Shown: piece by piece, positions 8,204 through 21,893 of the stretch
Numbering within the stretch: position 1 is the stretch's first letter
Layout: each line of letters begins with the position of its first letter
Assembly (NCBI GenBank): GCA_024654565.1
Contig: JANLHM010000005.1
Location: 223,647-247,646, forward strand
Direction: 5' to 3'
DNA from: Nanobdellota archaeon
GTDB taxonomy: Archaea; Nanobdellota; Nanobdellia; Pacearchaeales; GW2011-AR1
Length of the DNA stretch: 24,000 bases
Notes under the pieces: model-generated
What the model was told of the DNA's origin: nothing
Databases searched by the model: none
The model's input: the letters and a program-made list of their open reading frames with translations, nothing else
Translations under genes and position numbers: made by a program

Positions 8204-10720
8204 ATGGCATCTAAAAAAGAAGTTGAAGAGATTAAAGAAGCGGTTTTAGATGAAGAAGATAAGTTGTCCAAAAAGAAAAAAAGTGAAAAAATTCTGGGGT
8301 TAGAAGATTTACCTGGAATCGGTCCTGCTGCTGCCACTAAACTTGAAAGTGCGGGAGTTTTTGATTTAATGGGGCTTGCAGTTATGAGTCCTAGTTCATT
8401 GTCTGACGCTGCTGGAATTTCAAGTGCTGTTGCAAGGAAAGCAATACAGGCAGCAAGAAATATGCTTGAACTTGGATTTAGTGATGGAATTGAATTTGCA
8501 AAAAAAAGGTCAAATGTTCTTTATATTACAACTGGAAGTAAAAACTTTGATGAACTTCTGGGTGGGAGAGGGGTTGAATCAAGAGCGATAACGGAGGCAT
8601 TTGGAGCATATGGGTCTGGGAAAACGCAATTAGGATTGTCTTTAGCAGTGAATGTGCAACTTCCTATTGAACAAGGAGGAGCAGGGGGAAAAGCAGTGTA
8701 CATTGACACGGAAGGAACATTTAGGCCTCAGAGAATAAGGCAAATTGCAGAAGGAATTGGGGCTAACCCAGAGATGGTTCTAAAAAACATTCTTGTTGCT
8801 AGAGCTTTTAACTCGGACCACCAAATACTTCTTTTAGAAAAAGTTTCTGAATTAATAAAATCAGGGGAGCCAATAAAAGTTGTTGTAATTGATTCCTTAA
8901 CTGCTCACTTTAGGGCAGAGTTTGCAGGAAGAGGTCAACTTGCAGACAGACAACAAAAACTTAATCGGTATATGCATGAATTGATGAAGTTAGCAGAGAG
9001 TCATAACCTTGTAGTTTATGTAACAAATCAGGTTATGGCAAATCCCGCGCAGATGTTTGGAGACCCAACAACTGCAATTGGTGGAAATATTGTTGGACAT
9101 GCATGTTTAACGGGGGACAGTTTAATTCAATTGAATGACGGGAGAATTAAGGAAATTAGAGATATGAAAAAGGAAAAAGTTTTCTCTGGAGATCTATCAA
9201 CTTTAAAATTTGAGGTTGCAAATTCTGATAAAGTTTTTATTAATCCTAGTGTAAAAGAAGTCCATACAATTCAAACGACAAACGTTATAGAATGTTCTGA
9301 ACTTCATAAATTTTTTAGTGTTAGAGGTTTTTCTTTAATTGAAAAAGAGGCAAAAGATTTGAGAGAAGGAGATTTTATTGCTCATGCAGGGAAAGTTGAA
9401 ATTCATGGGGAAAGTCAAAGACTACCTTTGGTTAACGTCAAAAGGATTGGGAAAATTTCTGAGGAAGAAGGAAAATTGGTTTCAAATGAATTAAAAAAAG
9501 AGAATGTTACAAGAAAAGAAATTTGTGAAAAGGTGGGAATCACTCAGAGGCAATTTAGAAGGGTTCTTAATCAGGCTTACCCTGCAAATATGGAAGTATT
9601 TAACAAACTTGGTGAACACTTCTCTCAAAAGATGCAACTGCAAGTGCTACCATTTTACACTTATAAACACAAAAGTTTGATTATGCCTGAAGTAATGAGT
9701 TCGGAACTCTCTCAAATTTGTGGTTATTTCATTGGAGATGGCAATTTTGAGGAAAGAGGTTTGAGGTTTAGGGATGCAAGAGAAGAAGTTTTGCAAGTAT
9801 ACAAAAATTTATTCAAGAATATTTTTGGCGTCGAAGGGAGTATAAAGAAGATGAAAACCAAAAATTGTTTCACTTTAAACATAAATTCAAAGGAGATAAA
9901 AGATTTATTCACCCTCCTCTTACCGGATATTTTAGACATTATTGCAAAGTCAAAGAAGGATGTTGTTGGAAAATTTATTAAAGGGTTTGTCGATGCAGAA
10001 GGTCACATTGACCAAAGAAGACCGAAAATAAATATCTCTCAAAAAGAAAAACAGATTTTGAAATATTTACAGCTGTTTTTACTCAGATTTGGGATAAGAA
10101 GTTTTATTAGGTTTAATGTCGGAAATAAAAAGATCTCAAACATCTCTATAAGGGATCGTGATGTTAAAGATTACCTTCAGATTGGATTTAGTGCAAATGA
10201 TAAACAGAAAAAATTGGTAAATTGGTCAGAATATTGTCAAAAAACTTATGATAAAGAGATGATGCCTCTTGAAAGAAAAGAAATTTGGAACTTGTTAAAA
10301 GTTGCAGGCATAAAACCTTCTTGCGTTATTAAATCAAGACCTTCAGGTTACAAATGGATTAATAGGAGAGATTTGGAAAAAGCCCATTTCACCCTCATGA
10401 ATACTGAAATTAAAGACAGACAAATTAAACAGAAAGTTGAATTCATTTTTAAATTGCTCAACTCTGACTTGAGGTTTGAGAAAATTCAAAAAATAAAAGT
10501 GGCGGGAAATAAAAATAAGTCTTTACTTTATGACTTCTCTGTCCCAAAAAATGAAAATTATGTGGCGAATGGTTTTGTGGTTCATAACTCAACCTATAGA
10601 CTTTACTTAAGACGGGCAAAACAAGGTTCGAGAGTTGCAAAATTAATTGACAGCCCAAGTTTACCTGATGGAGAGGCAATTTATTACGTCACAAATCACG
10701 GAATAAAAGATAAAGAGTAA
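8204..10720 (+). CDS. radA: RadA recombinase (archaeal Rad51/RecA homologue) interrupted by an intein
   Basis: HhH LEDLPGIGPAAATKLESAGV, Walker A GAYGSGKTQ, Walker B KVVVIDS, GGNIVGHA | intein | STYRLYLRRAKQGSRVAKLIDSPSLPDGEA. The joined exteins total 343 aa, a normal RadA length. Confidence 0.95.
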   Translation: MASKKEVEEIKEAVLDEEDKLSKKKKSEKILGLEDLPGIGPAAATKLESAGVFDLMGLAVMSPSSLSDAAGISSAVARKAIQAARNMLELGFSDGIEFAKKRSNVLYITTGSKNFDELLGGRGVESRAITEAFGAYGSGKTQLGLSLAVNVQLPIEQGGAGGKAVYIDTEGTFRPQRIRQIAEGIGANPEMVLKNILVARAFNSDHQILLLEKVSELIKSGEPIKVVVIDSLTAHFRAEFAGRGQLADRQQKLNRYMHELMKLAESHNLVVYVTNQVMANPAQMFGDPTTAIGGNIVGHACLTGDSLIQLNDGRIKEIRDMKKEKVFSGDLSTLKFEVANSDKVFINPSVKEVHTIQTTNVIECSELHKFFSVRGFSLIEKEAKDLREGDFIAHAGKVEIHGESQRLPLVNVKRIGKISEEEGKLVSNELKKENVTRKEICEKVGITQRQFRRVLNQAYPANMEVFNKLGEHFSQKMQLQVLPFYTYKHKSLIMPEVMSSELSQICGYFIGDGNFEERGLRFRDAREEVLQVYKNLFKNIFGVEGSIKKMKTKNCFTLNINSKEIKDLFTLLLPDILDIIAKSKKDVVGKFIKGFVDAEGHIDQRRPKINISQKEKQILKYLQLFLLRFGIRSFIRFNVGNKKISNISIRDRDVKDYLQIGFSANDKQKKLVNWSEYCQKTYDKEMMPLERKEIWNLLKVAGIKPSCVIKSRPSGYKWINRRDLEKAHFTLMNTEIKDRQIKQKVEFIFKLLNSDLRFEKIQKIKVAGNKNKSLLYDFSVPKNENYVANGFVVHNSTYRLYLRRAKQGSRVAKLIDSPSLPDGEAIYYVTNHGIKDKE
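9104..10588 (+). mobile_element. Intein (495 aa) with LAGLIDADG homing-endonuclease domain inside radA
   Basis: The intein starts with Cys (CLTGDSLIQL, block A; tgt at 9104-9106) and ends VVHN followed by +1 Ser (aac 10586-10588, tca 10589-10591). Two LAGLIDADG motifs are present: ICGYFIGDGNF and KGFVDAEGHI. Block B is SELH. An HTH-like insert reads TRKEICEKVGITQRQFRRVL. Confidence 0.9.
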
Positions 10721-12296: not shown

Positions 12297-14150
12297 TTAA
12301 TCAAACCATACTTTCATAACACCTTTAATTTTTTTTATCCTTTTTATCGCTTCTTTTAATTCTTCTTTTGTGTTTACCAAGACAGTAAAATAACATTCGG
12401 CAAAATTGTTTCCTGATAGCTTTGCATTTGTTTCTTTAACTTTGAAGTTTTTCCTCAAGAGAGTGTTTATTATATCTGCAAGAATTCCTGACCTGTCAGA
12501 AGTTTGAACAAATATTTTGATTGGGTTTGAAAAGACTTCTTTCCATTCCGCTTTAACTTCATTTATTCTTTTTCCACTTATTCTGTTGCAGTCTTTTTTG
12601 TGTATTAATGCCTTTCTGTAAGACTTAACAATTCCAATAATTTCTTCGTCAGGTAGGGGGTTACAGCACCTTGCAAAATTTAAAAGGTGTTTTGGAAAGT
12701 CTTTTATTTCTGCTGGAGATTCTTCCCTTTCATTTAATTCTTTTTTTAGAAAGGAATCCTTTGGAACCGGAATATTCTCAAATTTTTGAACTTCTTTAGA
12801 TATAATCTTTTTTGCATATTTTGTTTTTACAAATTTTAACCAATCTCTTCTTGGTCTTTGGAATTTGTTAGTGATTATCTCAATTGTGTCCCCATTTTTC
12901 AATTCTGTTTTTAATGGGACAAACTTTCCATTAACTTTTGCTCCAATTGAGTGATTTCCCACTTCTGCATGAATTCTATAGGCAAAGTCCAGAGTCGAGG
13001 AACCAGTTGCAAGAGAAATAGATTTCCCTTTTGGGGTGTAACAATAAATTTTATCCTTAAATAAATTTAACTTAATCTCCCCAAAAAAAGAGCTTTTCTT
13101 TTCTTTTAATTTCAAAACTTCTTTTAGCCATGCAGTTTTTTTCTCAAATTTTTCATTACTTTTTATTTTCTTATATGCCCAGTGTGCAGCCCCTCCACCA
13201 TCGGCAATGTAATCCATTTCTTTTGTTCTTATTTGAATTTCAACTGTTTTAGTTCCATATTTTATACAGAAGTGAAGAGATTGATATCCATTTTCTTTTG
13301 GATTTTTGATGTAATCTTTTACCGTTCCATCCACAAGAGGATATGCACCGTTTAAAATTTCAAAAATAAGGTAGCAATCTCCTTCACTGTGAGTGATTAT
13401 CCTTACTCCAAATTGATCTCTTTGTTTGTTAAGGGGAATTTTTCTTTTTGTTATTTTTTCATATATACTGTATATTTGTTTTTCCCTTCCCTTAATTTTT
13501 ACATTTTTAATTTTTGGTTTTATCTTCTTCTCTATTTCCAAAATTATCCTTTTTATGTATCTCTCCCTCTCTCTTCTTGACATTTTTAAGAAATTAGAGA
13601 TCTCAAGATATTTCTTTGGGTTTAATGTTTTAAATGCTTCATCAGCAAGATCTTTTTTTAAATTTTTAAGTCCGAGTTTTTCGGCAAGAAACACTTCCCC
13701 CTCCATAACACTTTTTGCTTCGTCTTTATCTTTTTTGTTTTCTAATTCAACAAGTTTTGAAACTAAATGAAGGATTATTGCTTCAACATTTTCTATTGAT
13801 GAAATTATTGCCTCTTCTGGAAGTTTATCTTTTTCAAGTTTTGAGATTATAAGGATTTCTTCTAACTTTTTTTTGTTTTCTAAAATTGAAAAAATTTCTT
13901 CTCCAAATTCTTTTTTTAAAAAAGGGAAATCTCCTTTTTGAGTATCCAAAAATAAAAGTCCTGAGATAATGAGGTTTTTCTTAAATTTTTTTTTGTGTAA
14001 GTATTCTGATATCCTTATGATTTCTTTAACATTTTTACTTTTTTTCTTTTGAAGAAAATCAAGGGCTTTATTTATTAAATTTTTTTGTTCATTTGCAAAC
14101 TCTTTTTTTTCAAAAAACGACAAGAGACTTTTTTCTTCTTCTTGTTCCAT
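12297..14150 (-). CDS. Long RelA/SpoT homologue: pseudo-HD domain, (p)ppGpp synthetase domain, TGS, CC/zinc-finger and ACT/RRM domains
   Basis: Synthetase motifs GREKQIYSIYEKI, DQFGVRIIT, DYIKNPKENGYQSLH, EIQIRTKEMD, GGAAHWAYKK. TGS: IYCYTPKGKSISLATGSSTLDFAYRIHAEVGNHSIGAKVNGKFVPL...GDTIEIIT. CC motif: RCCNPLPDEEIIGIV...IHKKDCNRI. ACT: SDRSGILADIINTLLRKNFKVKE. At the HD position (AALLHDV.ED) the N-terminal region reads SGLLFLDTQKGD. Confidence 0.85.
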   Translation of the reverse strand: MEQEEEKSLLSFFEKKEFANEQKNLINKALDFLQKKKSKNVKEIIRISEYLHKKKFKKNLIISGLLFLDTQKGDFPFLKKEFGEEIFSILENKKKLEEILIISKLEKDKLPEEAIISSIENVEAIILHLVSKLVELENKKDKDEAKSVMEGEVFLAEKLGLKNLKKDLADEAFKTLNPKKYLEISNFLKMSRRERERYIKRIILEIEKKIKPKIKNVKIKGREKQIYSIYEKITKRKIPLNKQRDQFGVRIITHSEGDCYLIFEILNGAYPLVDGTVKDYIKNPKENGYQSLHFCIKYGTKTVEIQIRTKEMDYIADGGGAAHWAYKKIKSNEKFEKKTAWLKEVLKLKEKKSSFFGEIKLNLFKDKIYCYTPKGKSISLATGSSTLDFAYRIHAEVGNHSIGAKVNGKFVPLKTELKNGDTIEIITNKFQRPRRDWLKFVKTKYAKKIISKEVQKFENIPVPKDSFLKKELNEREESPAEIKDFPKHLLNFARCCNPLPDEEIIGIVKSYRKALIHKKDCNRISGKRINEVKAEWKEVFSNPIKIFVQTSDRSGILADIINTLLRKNFKVKETNAKLSGNNFAECYFTVLVNTKEELKEAIKRIKKIKGVMKVWFD

Positions 14151-14773: not shown

Positions 14774-15472
14774 TTAATTATATGAAAATTCTACATTTTC
14801 TTTTTTTGTGGCCAATTCAATACTCTCAATTATCTCTTTCATTTTTTGGGTTGCTTTTTTGATGTCATTCCCGTCAATTTGAAGAGAGTAATTTCCTGCT
14901 GCAAGGTATCTTATATCCTCCCCTTTTTTCATGAGTATCTTTTTTATTAATTTTAATCCATCTGGGTCATTTGAAGTAAGTTTTATCTGTTTTTTTACCT
15001 GGATATTCTTGCTTTTGTGTTTTTTTAAGATCTCTATTATTTTAATTGCATCTTCTTCTCCTGTGAATTTTTTAAGTTCAGAAGAGTTTGATTTTGACAT
15101 TTCGAGAAATTCGGAAAGTTGGTGTTCTTTTTTTATTTTATTGATTATTCCTTCGCTTTTGTCCTTTAAAATAGATTTTAAAATTCCCCCATAACTTTTC
15201 TCTGTTTTACTCTTTTCCAGAATTTCTTTTTTTTCTTTTTCTTTTACTCTTCTAAGTGAAAGTTCTATGTAATCTTTCATGACTCTCAAGACTTTGCATA
15301 CTATCGTTTTTTTTGGGACAACATAATCTCTTAGATTTCTTATTCTTCCAGCAGAAATTTCACTTAAAATTATTGTTCCTTTTTTTTCAGTCCCATCTAT
15401 ATCTACAAAGACAGTTGTTCCAACTATTTTGTCAACGGTGCATATAAGTATATCTCCTTGTTCAATTTCCAT
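14774..15472 (-). CDS. eif2a: Translation initiation factor aIF2 alpha subunit
   Basis: S1 domain GDILICTVDKIVGTTVFVDI...ILSEISAGRIRNLRDYVVPKKTIVCKVLRV...IELSLRRV, and a C-terminal alpha/beta domain with IRYLAAGNYSLQIDG. The nop10 neighbourhood supports the call. Confidence 0.85.
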   Translation of the reverse strand: MEIEQGDILICTVDKIVGTTVFVDIDGTEKKGTIILSEISAGRIRNLRDYVVPKKTIVCKVLRVMKDYIELSLRRVKEKEKKEILEKSKTEKSYGGILKSILKDKSEGIINKIKKEHQLSEFLEMSKSNSSELKKFTGEEDAIKIIEILKKHKSKNIQVKKQIKLTSNDPDGLKLIKKILMKKGEDIRYLAAGNYSLQIDGNDIKKATQKMKEIIESIELATKKENVEFSYN

Positions 15473-17810: not shown

Positions 17811-17934
17811 GATAATTATCTGTCAAGTTCTTTTTTAAAGCTTTGGGGCTTTTTTAAGTTTTATTTTTTGGGTTTTGGACTGACAATAATCTTTAAATAG
17901 ATTTTTTTGGTGTCTTTTTTACACCTTTCAATAT

Positions 17935-20239: not shown

Positions 20240-20392
20240 TTTTTAGGTTAATTCTTTAAGTCTGTTAGTTGGAGAATTCGATTTTTTATTTTTTTATTTT
20301 TTTTCACTTTTATAGTTTTTTGTTTCAATGGGATGTTTTAACAATCCTTTTAAAGTACTATTTTTTCATATTTTTGTAATCTAAGTTTATAT

Positions 20393-20465
20393 GGCTCTGT
20401 AGCTCAGTGTTTAGAGCGCTGCTCTCATGAGGCAGAGGTCGGGAGTTAAATTCTCCCCAGAGCCA
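20393..20465 (+). tRNA. tRNA with CAT anticodon (elongator Met or Ile2), atypical D and T loops
   Basis: GGCTCTG TA GCTC AGTGTTTA GAGC G CTGCT CTCATGA GGCAG AGGTC GGGAG TTAAATT CTCCC CAGAGCC A. It is not initiator-like: no A1:U72 and no triple G:C in the anticodon stem. The T loop is TTAAATT rather than TTCRANT, and the D loop lacks GG. A T5 run follows. Confidence 0.85.
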
Positions 20466-20470
20466 TTTTT
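20466..20470 (+). terminator. Oligo-T terminator after tRNA-CAT
   Basis: TTTTT immediately follows the discriminator base. Archaeal RNA polymerase terminates at oligo-T tracts. Confidence 0.4.
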
Positions 20471-20755: not shown

Positions 20756-20811
20756 CCAAATCAGTATAAAAGGTCTTTTTTAAATCTTATGTCTCTTAAG
20801 ACTAATCCAAA

Positions 20812-20821
20812 AGTTTATAAC
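20812..20821 (+). promoter_or_regulatory. TATA-like box for RNase P RNA
   Basis: AGTTTATAAC is centred about 26 nt upstream of the predicted P1 5' strand at about 20843. Confidence 0.45.
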
Positions 20822-20842: not shown

Positions 20843-21166
20843 GTAAGTCGGGGAGCTGACTTTCGGGACTTTAGTGTTAAATCACAAAGAAATGAATTAT
20901 GATTTCTAAGTTCTGAGGAAGGTCCGCCCATCACTAAAAACCACTTTCCGAAAGGGAAGTTCCTGTGAAGGAAAGCTCTTGCTACAGAAACGCCACAGCC
21001 GTTTTTGAGTTATGACTCGTGAGATGAACTAGGAAGAAACGGATTTGATGAAACGAGCACCTTGGTTGATGCAAAGGTAACTTAAGTGTATGCCTGCTTA
21101 GTCGAATGTCAGCATGTTTGGTCTGATTAACAGCAAACAACAGAAGGTGGCCTACCCTGACTTACG
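20843..21166 (+). ncRNA. rnpB: RNase P RNA (archaeal type)
   Basis: CR-I is GAGGAAGGUCCGCCC (about 20914-20928). The ACAGAAA motif occurs at CUACAGAAACGCC (about 20982-20994). AGAUGAAC is also present. CR-V is AACAGAAGGUGGCCUAC (about 21139-21155). P4 forms between AGG(U)CCGCC and GGUGGCCU with the classic bulged U. P1 forms between GUAAGUCGGGG (20843-20853) and CCCUGACUUAC (21155-21165). The region is a GC-rich island in AT-rich DNA. Confidence 0.85.
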
Positions 21167-21310
21167 TTTTCCACCTCAAACAAGTTTGATGCTCGTCGAC
21201 GCAGTCACTTCGCATAAAGGTGGCCTACCCTGACTTACGTTTTCCACCTCAAACAAGTTTGATGCTCGTCGATGCAGTCACTTCGCATAAAGGTGGCCTA
21301 CCCTGACTTA
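21144..21310 (+). repeat. 73-nt tandem repeat (2 full units plus a 21-nt partial) seeded by the 3'-terminal 21 nt of RNase P RNA
   Basis: AAGGTGGCCTACCCTGACTTA occurs at 21144-21164, 21217-21237 and 21290-21310. Unit 1 (21144-21216) and unit 2 (21217-21289) differ at one position, C21200 versus T21273. Only copy 1 is preceded by the CR-V ACAG. Only copy 3 is followed by T7. Confidence 0.9.
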
Positions 21311-21532
21311 TTTTTTTAAAATTGTTTTAAGGTCCACAATGAGTCGTGTGAGACTTTTTTTCTCTCTTTCTTCAAATTCAGAAAATTCGAATTTGTTTAT
21401 TGAGTCCCTGTGAATTCTTATATCATCTACCACATCAAGTATATTTTTCCCAAGTACTTCTTCAGAAGGGTTGTCACTTCTTTTTACTTTATATCCCCCG
21501 TATTCTCTATTGTAAAAATAAATTACATCCAC
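21308..21532 (-). CDS. Hypothetical 74-aa protein, GTG start, no in-frame ATG
   Basis: The ORF is VDVIYFYNREYGGYKVKRSDNPSEEVLGKNILDVVDDIRIHRDSINKFEFSEFEEREKKSLTRLIVDLKTILKK. The start codon is GTG (cac at 21530-21532) and the frame closes 5 codons upstream. A TATA-like TTTATAAAAA (minus strand, about 21552-21566) is centred about 26 nt upstream. I recognise no family. Confidence 0.35.
   Translation of the reverse strand: MDVIYFYNREYGGYKVKRSDNPSEEVLGKNILDVVDDIRIHRDSINKFEFSEFEEREKKSLTRLIVDLKTILKK
21311..21317 (+). terminator. Oligo-T (T7) tract after the third copy of the RNase P RNA 3' end
   Basis: TTTTTTT directly follows ...CCCTGACTTA at 21310. Copies 1 and 2 are followed only by CGTTTTCC. 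Confidence 0.4.
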
Positions 21533-21575
21533 GATTAATATAGGAATTTAGTTTTTATAAATATTTATCTTATTT

Positions 21576-21621
21576 TAAAATAACTTTTTCTAAAATAACC
21601 TTTTCTAAAAATACCTTTTCC
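21576..21621. repeat. Three tandem ~15-nt repeats
   Basis: taaaataactttttc (21576-21590), taaaataaccttttc (21591-21605), taaaaataccttttcc (21606-21621). They run directly into the tRNA-Phe 3'-end duplicate, which begins ctaaaag. Confidence 0.8.
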
Positions 21622-21645
21622 TAAAAGTGGGAATGGGGGGAGTCG
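21621..21645 (-). repeat. 25-nt exact duplicate of the tRNA-Phe 3' end plus flank (att-like direct repeat)
   Basis: ctaaaagtgggaatggggggagtcg at 21621-21645 is identical to 21719-21743. That second copy comprises the last 18 nt of tRNA-Phe plus 7 nt of 3' flank. The copies are 98 nt apart in direct orientation. Confidence 0.85.
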
Positions 21646-21725
21646 GTTTCGGAAAGCAAGTTCCTCACAACATTTTCTTTAGAAAGAAAACATAAACCCC
21701 GAGAGGTTCGACTAATCTCTAAAAG

Positions 21726-21797
21726 TGGGAATGGGGGGAGTCGAACCCCCCACACCATGATCTTCAGTCATGTGCTCTCCCGCTGAGCTACACTCCC
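21726..21797 (-). tRNA. tRNA-Phe (anticodon GAA)
   Basis: Reverse complement folds as GGGAGTG TA GCTC AGCGGGA GAGC A CATGA CTGAAGA TCATG GTGTG GGGGG TTCGACT CCCCC CATTCCC A, a 72-nt canonical cloverleaf. No CCA is encoded. Confidence 0.9.
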
Positions 21798-21893
21798 TTA
21801 CTAAATTTAAAGCGCGGGTTCTTTTTTAAAGTTTATTGAATCCTGTTTTATCAGAACTTTTATAAATAACCAGTTCTTTTGTAAATAAAGAAG

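Follow-up and report, generated by a model that had tools for sequence, protein, structure and literature searches.

In archaea, the attachment sites of integrated elements measure 8-69 bp, and both the tandem re-use of a site and targets among RNA genes other than tRNAs, e.g., ffs, have been documented (PMC9897764, PMC6563490, PMC12540744). A further described route is that of the casposase, a Cas1 homologue, which integrates at the 3' end of tRNA-Pro in Aciduliprofundum boonei and can insert short duplexes (PMC5137440). The casposon itself encodes Cas1 and PolB, carries terminal inverted repeats and generates a fixed 15 bp duplication located mostly beyond the tRNA. MITEs have inverted termini, make duplications of 2-10 bp and are scattered genome-wide, and CIMEs are of kilobase scale. 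To our knowledge, RNase P RNA has not been described as the target of an insertion with 3'-end duplication, and a literature search likewise returned no report of it as such a target. The locus considered here lies in a stretch of 24,000 nt from a Pacearchaeota genome (the whole stretch is hereafter called the window), and it concerns an array directly downstream of the RNase P RNA gene (rnpB). This array is one example of a recurrent habit of this DPANN lineage, apparently undescribed, in which short modules come to lie where genes for tRNAs and RNase P RNA end.

The rnpB array and its empty site in relatives

A comparison with Rfam recovers a full-length archaeal RNase P RNA at 20843-21165 (RF00373, model positions 1-288; 146.4 bits as against a gathering score of 84, E=1e-41), with both P4 and P1 inside the covariance match. 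The preliminary description of this DNA had read the repeated block as the 3' end of the RNase P RNA, and the span of the model upholds that reading: in the RF00373 alignment, the 21-mer AAGGTGGCCTACCCTGACTTA appears as ACAG followed by AAGGnGGcUUAc and the closing strand of P1. Further, the distance of an upstream TTTATAA from the rnpB 5' end is one that we take to suit an archaeal promoter, a sigma-70 scan not being applicable to it. The features of the locus, in window coordinates, are as follows.

20814..20820, plus strand: TATA-box-like TTTATAA, ~26 nt 5' of the rnpB start, read from the sequence; likely the rnpB promoter
20843..21165, plus strand: rnpB, intact archaeal RNase P RNA gene (RF00373 full-length match), with orthologues in the same synteny in the relatives L001, L006, L013 and L043
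21144..21164, plus strand: repeat copy 1, the last 21 nt of rnpB (P4 3' strand and P1 3' strand), from the exact 21-mer and the RF00373 alignment
21165..21216, plus strand: spacer 1, a 52-nt foreign module of 48% GC in a genome of ~32% GC; absent from L001 and L006
21217..21237, plus strand: repeat copy 2, an exact 21-mer match
21238..21289, plus strand: spacer 2, equal to spacer 1 save for T at 21273 (C at 21200)
21290..21310, plus strand: repeat copy 3, adjoining the native downstream flank, which aligns with the flank of the single copy in L001
21311..21317, plus strand: T7 tract, read from the sequence; the sole strong archaeal terminator-like signal 3' of rnpB
21308..21532, minus strand: conserved small ORF of 74 aa, 38-47% identical to the syntenic ORFs of L001 and L006, without a Pfam family

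Exactly three instances of the 21-mer are present in the window, at 21144, 21217 and 21290, each 73 nt from the next, and allowing up to three mismatches adds no further match (shuffle expectation 0). Tandem Repeats Finder delimits the array as 21144-21310, with a period of 73, 2.3 copies and 98% matches. The two full 73-nt units differ at one base, C at 21200 versus T at 21273, with 21144-21199 and 21201-21237 as exact blocks. The three copies, their period and the single C/T difference thus stand as originally described, and the insert, then given as 53 nt, is a spacer of 52 nt (73 minus 21). As the C/T difference lets a short-read assembler separate the units, the two units are best read as a lower bound on the copy number.

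Copy 1 alone is preceded by ACAG, and copies 2 and 3 are preceded by GCATA; the RF00373 alignment bears out the earlier proposal that only copy 1 stands in the context of the catalytic core. Being the sole copy preceded by ACAG, copy 1 is the functional 3' end of rnpB. A strong oligo-T tract (T7) follows copy 3 only, as had also been noted, and copies 1 and 2 are followed, as read from the sequence, by a run of only four T's. The rnpB spacers begin CGTTTT-CCACCT, and the complementarity of CCACCT to AGGTGG to which the preliminary description drew attention is real; taken alone, however, its 6 nt do not reach significance (p about 0.15), and it becomes meaningful only within a junction pattern shared across the class (see below). 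The final 3 nt of copy 3 also constitute the stop codon (TAA, minus strand) of the convergent small ORF.

The gene order S17e, rnpB, small ORF, tRNA-Phe is kept in L001 and L006, where S17e is 90% and 85% identical, respectively. In both relatives, the rnpB 3' end occurs once, the 52-nt spacer is missing, and the 3' flank can be aligned with the DNA that follows copy 3, so that the array is, on this alignment, a lineage-specific 146-bp insertion between an intact rnpB and its native flank. The comparison of rnpB 3' flanks in related genomes, proposed earlier as a check, hence returns an empty site with the native flank after the last copy, and the small ORF is a native neighbour outside the insertion. 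A direct repeat combined with an empty site, as left by integrase-mediated integration (attL/attR), is therefore present at rnpB. A plain tandem duplication of native sequence does not describe the array, the spacer of its unit being absent from L001 and L006; for the same reason, replication slippage explains the step from one unit to two and not the first unit. No second rnpB with such an array was found among four distinct relatives examined.

The rnpB spacer has no relatives in anything searched, phage and plasmid records included. An Rfam scan of 21160-21725 at E<=10 gave nothing relevant and no match for the spacer, whose predicted fold is weaker than that of shuffled sequences (MFE z=+1.2; z=-0.1 for the whole unit); a function is thus not visible from family matches or folding. 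In exact-pattern scans, the 21-mer was absent from genome, viral and metagenome contigs, and a 22-mer of the spacer, the 3' cores of tRNA-Phe and tRNA-Met, and a degenerate pattern for the F1 module described below were not found in viral contigs. Likewise, no attP-bearing element with the 21-mer, the spacer or the tRNA cores was matched in exact-pattern scans of viral, metagenome and genome contigs. BLAST of both arrays against phage records, and of the rnpB array against plasmid records, gave chance-level matches only, and the viral and plasmid search once suggested for the spacer accordingly supplies no source. The proteins of the 24-kb window include no recombinase, Cas1, transposase or reverse transcriptase. 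The spacer is not a significant patchwork of the adjacent gene (p=0.13-0.24), and no local templating of the spacers was found within +-3 kb.

Other identities were considered for the array and rejected. It is not a CRISPR array, its two spacers being identical bar 1 nt and cas genes not being found in the window. The sole CRISPR-DR match, at E=3, falls in the tRNA-Phe spacer. A box C/D sRNA formed of spacer and repeat, judged by C (RUGAUGA) and D (CUGA) boxes, k-turn geometry, and family or covariance support, offers UGAUGC and CUGA with degenerate C'/D' boxes and no Rfam match at E<=10, and the motif is absent from the tRNA-linked cases.

Insertions at tRNA 3' ends of the same lineage

A parallel duplication, missing from the preliminary description, lies 400 nt from rnpB, where two 25-nt copies of the 3' end of the convergent tRNA-Phe (100% identity) enclose a spacer of 73 nt. 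Both the duplication and this spacer are absent from L001 and L006. The components are the following.

21725..21797, minus strand: intact tRNA-Phe(GAA), by ARAGORN and Rfam; its 3' end, from the T55/C56 boundary on, is the proximal repeat copy
21646..21718, minus strand: F1 module, 73 nt, inserted after tRNA-Phe; L139, L140 and L147 have a homologue of it as the tRNA-proximal spacer of tRNA-Leu(aag)
21621..21645, minus strand: distal partial tRNA-Phe 3' end (C56 to N73 plus CTTTTAG), a perfect 25-nt direct repeat of 21719-21743, adjoining the native flank

Local alignment of F1 at tRNA-Phe with the tRNA-Leu module of L139 gives z=14.4 and ~80% identity over ~66 nt, with an nhmmer E of about 1e-18 for both. 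In both insertions, the repeat starts exactly at the T55/C56 boundary and the module ends in ...AAAC, and the repeats are each host tRNA's own sequence, i.e., that of tRNA-Phe and of tRNA-Leu, respectively. Since F1 is homologous at different tRNAs and its repeats are host-matched, the comparison marks the module as the mobile part and the repeat as copied from the target; module mobility is drawn mainly from this one strong family and a weaker one (F2, z=4.8).

Such architecture is recurrent. In 17 of the 125 distinct tRNA loci in relatives (~14%), an exact 15-nt copy of the 3' end is found within 400 nt downstream, and four control combinations of probe and side (3' probe upstream; 5' probe downstream/upstream; middle probe either side) yield zero. 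An unbiased repeat scan places nearly all non-coding short-range repeats at tRNA 3' ends. [quoted passage not shown] Two assemblies of one species (L138, L139) have a common distal module and a degenerate distal copy, and their proximal modules differ, a comparison that places turnover at the position adjoining the tRNA. At tRNA-Arg of the L138 group, the module is ~90% conserved and the distal repeat has decayed to 13/20 matches; from these alignments, the repeat emerges as a by-product of which old distal copies decay. An 80-nt tRNA-Met array is present as 1, 2 or at least 3 units across assemblies of one species, and such arrays often contain scaffold gaps; their copy number is labile. Deliberate masking does not account for the N-runs in related loci, which are 100-N scaffold gaps present also in coding tandem repeats.

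The tRNA-Met and tRNA-Arg modules are conserved across genera to about the same degree as coding DNA, which hints at selection on some modules as opposed to a pure passenger status. In the tRNA-Met module family, the best-sampled one, RNAalifold shows hairpin 1 and the T-arm to be conserved with essentially no compensatory change. No kb-scale element flanked by tRNA 3' ends was found within +-10 kb in 27 longer loci (11 distinct tRNAs). The junctions have a pattern of their own: spacers start with a reverse complement of the sequence that spans the repeat's left edge, and the longest matches sum to 108 as against 67 +- 3.6 in shuffles and 69 in a control window. In many cases a short direct copy of that region comes next, the signature of a snap-back or loop-out. 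In two loci (L075, L077), long stretches of flank are duplicated around filler. A BHB-intron extending from repeat to repeat was rejected, as no bulge-helix-bulge can be drawn and splicing would be without effect on identical copies; so was a split or permuted tRNA, the upstream tRNAs being intact and the modules without an acceptor 5' strand.

Origin of the array

We favor, with a probability of roughly 0.5, a miniature insertion that duplicated its target; tandem amplification would have come later, and as regards RNase P function the array would be a passenger. Among the recent ancestors of this Pacearchaeota genome, a 52-bp non-coding module would have been inserted at the extreme 3' terminus of rnpB, duplicating the last 21 bp of the gene to give the order gene end, module, gene-end copy, native flank. 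The repeat would have been copied from the target as in target-site duplication by staggered breaks, with a geometry like that of casposase or CRISPR-adaptation integration beside a TpsiC-loop 'leader'. The doubling of the 73-bp unit may have followed through replication slippage, through recombination of unequally paired 21-bp repeats, or because the same module inserted a second time. The spacers, together with copies 2 and 3, would then be downstream DNA, at most transcribed as a 3' trailer as far as the T7 tract and subsequently trimmed. Copy 1 is contiguous with the catalytic-core ACAG and closes P4 and P1, and hence the ribozyme would be unchanged; the array is probably harmless for RNase P. 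Comparison of the loci establishes insertion, target duplication and recurrence at the level of sequence, along with the mobility of modules, their turnover beside the tRNA and the decay of old distal copies. It is by analogy that the rnpB event would have used the same process as the tRNA insertions, and the mobility of the rnpB module is likewise suggested only by analogy because its spacer has no relatives anywhere searched. Additionally, the modules have no terminal inverted repeats, and their variable repeat length is unlike the fixed duplications of known transposases; both count against the favored reading.

The preliminary description had left several origins open, of which the tandemly amplified miniature element is favored by the occurrence of F1 at a different tRNA in another genome, and the classic attL/attR event with an integrase fares less well, no integrase, cargo or attP having been found. 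In the form of a scar, the latter would begin with a kb-scale element whose attP equals the rnpB 3' end, integrated by a tyrosine recombinase, with its interior lost down to 52 bp and the remnant duplicated. The partial 3'-end duplication of a stable-RNA gene is indeed the textbook att footprint, the tRNA repeats begin in the T-stem/T-loop as in the classical T-loop sublocation, the empty site and the foreign, GC-richer spacer fit, and a proximal module that differs between strains fits accretion at a regenerated attL. We nonetheless consider it unlikely, though a possible origin, given that an integrase and cargo are absent here and in roughly 20 independent cases, with inserts all of 43-105 bp, that kb-scale repeats of tRNA 3' ends are not seen within +-3 to 10 kb, that exact-pattern scans of viral, metagenome and genome collections found no attP-bearing contig, and that F1 stands at tRNA-Phe and tRNA-Leu with each repeat matched to its host. 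Further, an integrase would leave an element-derived proximal copy and hence a chimeric host tRNA, save where gene conversion had come after. The above-mentioned junction pattern (108 versus 67 +- 3.6), with the short direct copies that often follow it, the flank duplications of L075 and L077 and the labile copy number might instead speak for a repair or replication error without a mobile element, wherein the 3' end, structured and highly transcribed as it is, suffered a break or a stalled fork whose repair by template switching or synthesis-dependent end joining over-copied the gene end and added filler, slippage then amplifying the product. This appears improbable, as most of each spacer is not templated by the gene or the local +-3 kb, homologous modules occur at different tRNAs and genomes and are kept across genera, which random filler would not be, and the junction complement at rnpB itself is only 6 nt (p about 0.15).

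A functional RNA has somewhat less to recommend it and is regarded as quite improbable. The array could on this account provide alternative 3' ends, a regulatory 3' extension with hairpins competing with P4 or P1, or a small RNA from the spacer and next repeat, e.g., one that is box C/D-like. Each of the three copies can form P1, with energies that hardly differ (-127.4, -125.7 and -128.2 kcal/mol), CCACCU can pair with AGGUGG, the sole strong oligo-T stands behind copy 3, the UGAUGC of the spacer is ~37 nt from the CUGA of the repeat, a plausible C/D spacing, and the tRNA-Met and tRNA-Arg modules are conserved about as coding DNA. However, the closest relatives do without the array, which RNase P therefore does not require; the spacer is unmatched in Rfam at E<=10 and has a z of +1.2 (whole unit z=-0.1), which also tells against the alternative 3' ends or precursor structures raised at the outset; the C/D motifs are not seen again at the tRNA loci; and old distal repeats decay, with little covariation by RNAalifold. 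An artefact, with short-read metagenome assembly creating the tandem copies or mis-setting their number, can hardly be credited at all: identical tandem units in relatives are assembled as 1, 2 or at least 3 copies with scaffold gaps, making copy number unreliable, but assembly cannot invent a 52-nt sequence between exact gene-end copies, the C/T difference separates the units, and the same architecture is found in many independent assemblies from different projects.

A bolder and decidedly tentative proposal, which we regard as unlikely to hold, is that Pacearchaeota have a polarised and so far undescribed process of insertion. Short non-coding modules would be placed directly after stable-RNA genes (those of tRNAs and RNase P RNA), with the T-loop/3'-terminal region as a leader-like site and the last 18-25 bp duplicated, the newest module lying next to the gene and pushing older, decaying ones outward. 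This might amount to a casposase- or CRISPR-adaptation-like record without recognisable Cas1 context, or to miniature elements of a new class, mobilised in trans and confined to RNA-gene ends.

Implications and relation to known systems

If one enzyme system is responsible, the insertions would represent a new way for mobile DNA to exploit stable-RNA gene ends in tiny genomes, and the modules could be used as natural markers of strains or as a record of chronology. In practical terms, partial copies confuse the annotation of tRNAs and non-coding RNAs, the arrays break short-read assemblies, with scaffold gaps falling exactly inside them, and they could be mistaken for CRISPR-like arrays. The rnpB array is also a natural test of the tolerance of a ribozyme to competing 3' strands in its own transcript.

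Tyrosine-integrase elements that leave attL/attR in genes for tRNA, tmRNA and other stable RNAs, such as archaeal iMGEs and phage phiEf11 in ffs, share with the present loci the 3'-end direct repeat, an intact gene on one side, the empty site, the T-loop start in tRNAs and tandem re-use (PMC9897764, PMC6563490, PMC12540744). In contrast to them, the inserts here are of 43-105 bp and have neither genes nor an integrase, F1 occurs at two tRNAs with host-matched repeats, and the targets include RNase P RNA; neither the 52-nt spacer nor any of the related cases, all devoid of cargo, points to an element bearing an integrase or other mobile genes. Replication slippage shares with the array the head-to-tail, near-identical 73-nt units and, in related arrays, a copy number that varies with the assembly. 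MITEs and CIMEs resemble the modules in being short, non-coding, hairpin-rich, presumably trans-mobilised and flanked by target direct repeats; unlike the MITEs, however, the modules were seen only at stable-RNA 3' ends, in one orientation and with long duplications. As compared with the casposon, the duplication here starts within the T-arm and covers 11 to about 39 bp, inverted termini are absent and Cas1 is not seen in the 24-kb window, so that neither a fixed duplication (14-15 bp or repeat length) nor the terminal inverted repeats of casposon or CRISPR integration are matched; as compared with CRISPR spacers, the units within arrays are identical and not different. The target-derived duplication, TpsiC-loop leader and proximal polarity of staggered integration are nevertheless found together in the tRNA cases, and at rnpB by analogy only. 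[quoted passage not shown]

The rnpB array and its genomic setting

The archaeal RNase P RNA gene (rnpB) is recognized by a full-length match to Rfam model RF00373 (146.4 bits, E=1e-41) at 20843-21165 on the plus strand, with a TATA-like TTTATAA approximately 26 nt upstream of its 5' end. In the RF00373 alignment, the conserved ACAG precedes AAGGUGGCCUAC, the 3' strand of P4; next comes CCCUGACUUAC, which pairs with the 5' end GUAAGUCGGGG to close P1. There are exactly three occurrences of the 21-mer AAGGTGGCCTACCCTGACTTA in the window, at 21144, 21217 and 21290 (copies 1, 2 and 3), against a chance expectation of 0, and Tandem Repeats Finder returns a period of 73 nt with 2.3 copies at 98% identity. 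The two full units differ solely at 21200 (C) versus 21273 (T), ACAG precedes copy 1 only, and an oligo-T tract (T7, 21311-21317) directly follows copy 3 only. These observations bear out the preliminary description, which had reported the threefold 3'-terminal block at 73-nt spacing, the single C/T difference, and the restriction of the catalytic-core context to copy 1 and of the strong oligo-T to copy 3; the Rfam match, which ends at 21165, defines an RNA 3' end that includes copy 1. The inserts, however, are 52 rather than 53 nt long.

The window has a GC content of about 32% and its proteins form an ordinary archaeal housekeeping set; no integrase, Cas1, transposase or reverse transcriptase is found among its genes.

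Features of the window
8204-10720: RadA/Rad51 recombinase gene, split by an intein that carries a LAGLIDADG homing-endonuclease domain
12297-14150, minus strand: full-length RelA/SpoT-like protein with RelA_SpoT, TGS and ACT domains
Directly adjoining rnpB: S17e
21308-21532, minus strand: small ORF of 74 aa, without a Pfam family, convergent to rnpB, 38-47% identical in relatives L001 and L006
21725-21797, minus strand: tRNA-Phe, convergent with rnpB, 400 nt from the array
Right-hand end: CysRS
Window protein: YjbQ
Window protein: DHH/Cdc45-like protein
Window protein: eIF2-alpha
Window protein: NDK
Window protein: UDG

S17e matches a protein from a 'Nanoarchaeota archaeon' MAG at 100% identity, with Pacearchaeota next nearest. 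The L131 homologue of the RelA/SpoT-like protein additionally possesses an HD domain; (p)ppGpp enzymes of this type, present here in a member of the DPANN, are uncommon in archaea. tRNA-Cys, S17e and tRNA-Phe are each preceded by a shared 17-nt motif, G(T/G)TCTTTTTTAAA(G/T)(C/T)TT (17827-17843, 20772-20788 and 21818-21834), which is probably a common promoter (BRE/TATA) element.

The closest relatives by S17e, L001-L005 (90% identical) and L006-L011 (85%), share with the window the gene order S17e, rnpB, small ORF, tRNA-Phe, two conserved ORFs and CysRS. In a three-way alignment the relatives' rnpB 3' end is single, the 52-nt spacer is wholly absent, and the downstream sequence aligns with that following copy 3, such that the window carries a 146-bp insertion (2 x 73) between an intact rnpB and its native flank. 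Among four distinct relatives with a findable rnpB, the array is present in the window only. The small ORF, being conserved in relatives, is a native gene; the final 3 nt of copy 3 provide its TAA stop, and at the C-terminus it departs from its counterparts in the relatives.

Were transcription to reach T7, the precursor would contain three candidate P1/P4 3' strands. Folds in which P1 is forced with copy 1, 2 or 3 are nearly equal in energy (-127.4, -125.7 and -128.2 kcal/mol), so the native fold would not be protected by thermodynamics and would have to be safeguarded by co-transcriptional order, with copy 1 emerging first, together with 3' trimming. Further, in such a transcript the CCACCU of each spacer can pair with a neighbouring AGGUGG, which, depending on the partner, could act as a competitor of P4 or tie up the additional copies.

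Direct repeats at tRNA 3' ends

The tRNA-Phe 3' end is likewise duplicated, a case additional to the preliminary description: a perfect 25-nt repeat, extending from T-loop C56 to the discriminator base plus CTTTTAG, recurs 98 nt downstream past a 73-nt spacer (whole region 21621-21797, minus strand), and is single in the aligned L001 and L006. A 15-nt tandem repeat, TAAAATAACTTTTTC (3.3 copies, 21576-21626), abuts the distal copy; its units end on the tRNA strand in TTTTAG or TTTTAA, resembling the tRNA trailer; L001 lacks this tandem repeat, and the region looks slippage-prone. Alignment with L001 and L006 also reveals a G5-U68 wobble in the acceptor stem (21726-21797), whose 5' strand is of the L001 type (GGGAGTG) and 3' strand of the L006/L013 type (CATTCCC), a mixture that could represent ordinary compensatory drift or the trace of a 3'-end replacement. 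Upstream of tRNA-Phe in the relative L013 (1040-1200), the tRNA 5' part (GGGAATGTAGCTCAG to the D-arm) is repeated twice in 72-nt units, each also holding the complement of this fragment, a single instance of a 5'-end counterpart.

Across 147 loci anchored on S17e and drawn from related genomes and metagenomes (approximately 0.93 Mb including the window), 17 of 125 distinct tRNA loci with full flanks have an exact 15-nt copy of their 3' end within 400 nt downstream (Met, Arg(tct), Arg(tcg), Phe and Leu), as against 0 for each control: 3' probe upstream, 5' probe downstream, 5' probe upstream and mid-gene probe on either side. An unbiased scan for every exact direct repeat 18 nt or longer, with copies 30-600 nt apart, placed almost all of them at tRNA 3' ends, excepting low-GC tandem repeats in Lys-rich coding regions, and was the sole source of a tRNA-Cys case (L076/L077, 113-nt spacing). 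In this class the repeats begin within the T-stem or T-loop (tRNA positions ~45-62) and extend to 0-8 nt beyond the discriminator base, spacers measure 43-105 nt, and arrays with 2-3 units exist. As 100-N scaffold gaps are frequent inside arrays and one species is assembled variously with 1, 2 or at least 3 units, copy number is labile, unreliable, or both.

The tRNA-Met(CAT) beside S17e (20392-20466) lies in the window and L001 on the strand opposite to that in many relatives (L016, L048 and L131-L137 were compared), indicating inversion of the gene between lineages; in some relatives it has an anticodon-loop intron and 80-110-nt arrays come after the gene. A gene downstream of it contains in many relatives long low-GC tandem repeats (L020:3930-4190, L025:1635-1745, L057:3695-3840 and others), which probably encode Lys-rich peptide repeats and likewise interrupt assemblies with 100-N gaps. 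At a contig end approximately 150 nt downstream of a tRNA-Leu, L130 has a Y1 (IS200/IS605-type) transposase gene (14915-15379) that is absent from this position in sister assemblies.

Modules, turnover and junctions

The tRNA-Phe spacer is homologous to one adjacent to tRNA-Leu(aag) in another Pacearchaeota species (L139, L140, L147), with ~80% identity over ~66 nt (local alignment z=14.4; nhmmer E ~1e-18 for both). In both cases the T55|C56 boundary is the exact starting point of the duplicated block, which reproduces the 3' end of its own host tRNA, and the module ends in ...AAAC. Such host-matched repeats around a shared module look like target-site duplication and are hard to square with an attP-carrying element; the spacer is the mobile part and the repeat a copy of the target. 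This pair aside, modules compared across different targets are unrelated. At tRNA-Leu, L138 and L139, strains of a single species, have the distal module in common, along with a degenerate distal repeat, but their modules beside the tRNA differ, so turnover takes place at the gene-proximal position. The tRNA-Arg(tct) module of the L138 group is ~90% identical to that of L045, but its distal repeat has decayed to 13/20 matches, implying that the repeat itself is not under selection.

Spacers additionally tend to open with the reverse complement of sequence spanning the repeat's left edge: the longest complementary matches sum to 108 over 16 cases, compared with 67 +- 3.6 for shuffled spacers and 69 for a control window placed at a more upstream position in the gene. 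Behind the complement there is often a short stretch that directly repeats the T-stem 5' region. This junction complement, which could be a module recognition element or a footprint of snap-back synthesis at insertion, measures 9 nt at the window's tRNA-Phe (p=0.001). At rnpB, the complementarity of CCACCT to AGGTGG pointed out in the preliminary description does exist, but spans 6 nt only (p ~0.15).

Within the 0.93 Mb of related loci the rnpB spacer is without relatives, and Rfam gives no match to it even at E<=10. Searches for a viral or plasmid source found none: an exact-pattern scan of viral contigs with a 22-mer of the spacer gave no match, and BLAST of the array against phage and plasmid records gave no meaningful one; AAGGTGGCCTACCCTGACTTA was likewise without an exact match in public viral, metagenome and genome contigs. 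The spacer folds worse than shuffled sequence (z=+1.2; full unit z=-0.1), and its templating from rnpB is not significant. On paper, UGAUGC ... CUGA would allow a box C/D-like reading, which is unsupported.

Origin of the insertions

The finding is real and more than an oddity of one gene. It is established that a foreign short module was inserted and the target duplicated, that the process specifically targets stable-RNA genes at their 3' ends, that at least one module family is mobile, and that turnover is proximal with arrays amplifying in tandem. The rnpB array is one instance of this recurrent insertion class, the sole one at rnpB so far, and its link to the class lies in architecture and proximity, not in spacer homology.

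We favour, with a probability of about 0.5, miniature insertion with target-derived duplication followed by tandem amplification: a short foreign module would enter at the 3' end of a stable-RNA gene, duplicating the target's own 3' end such that repeats flank it, and the repeat-plus-module unit would later be amplified. An att scar left by a classical integrase (PMC9897764, PMC6563490) accounts for the location and the T-loop boundary, yet is an unlikely source given the uniformly tiny inserts, the lack of any integrase and the host-matched repeats flanking a shared module. Less probable still are the remaining readings, among them pure repair error, which explains the junction complement but fails on homologous modules at different genes.

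The nearest described geometry to that favoured miniature insertion is that of casposase, which integrates at the tRNA-Pro gene of A. boonei; there, the target comprises an 18-bp TpsiC-loop 'leader' and a 15-bp segment that is duplicated and overlaps the tRNA end, and integration is directional, can be tandem and accepts short duplexes (PMC5137440). In contrast, the Pacearchaeota repeats are longer and of variable length, the modules are without inverted termini, and no Cas1 gene is apparent. Duplication of the 3' end of a stable-RNA gene through foreign DNA insertion is already known; the class, apparently hitherto undescribed in Pacearchaeota, is new in form, with its tiny non-coding modules, long target-derived repeats and RNase P RNA as a target.
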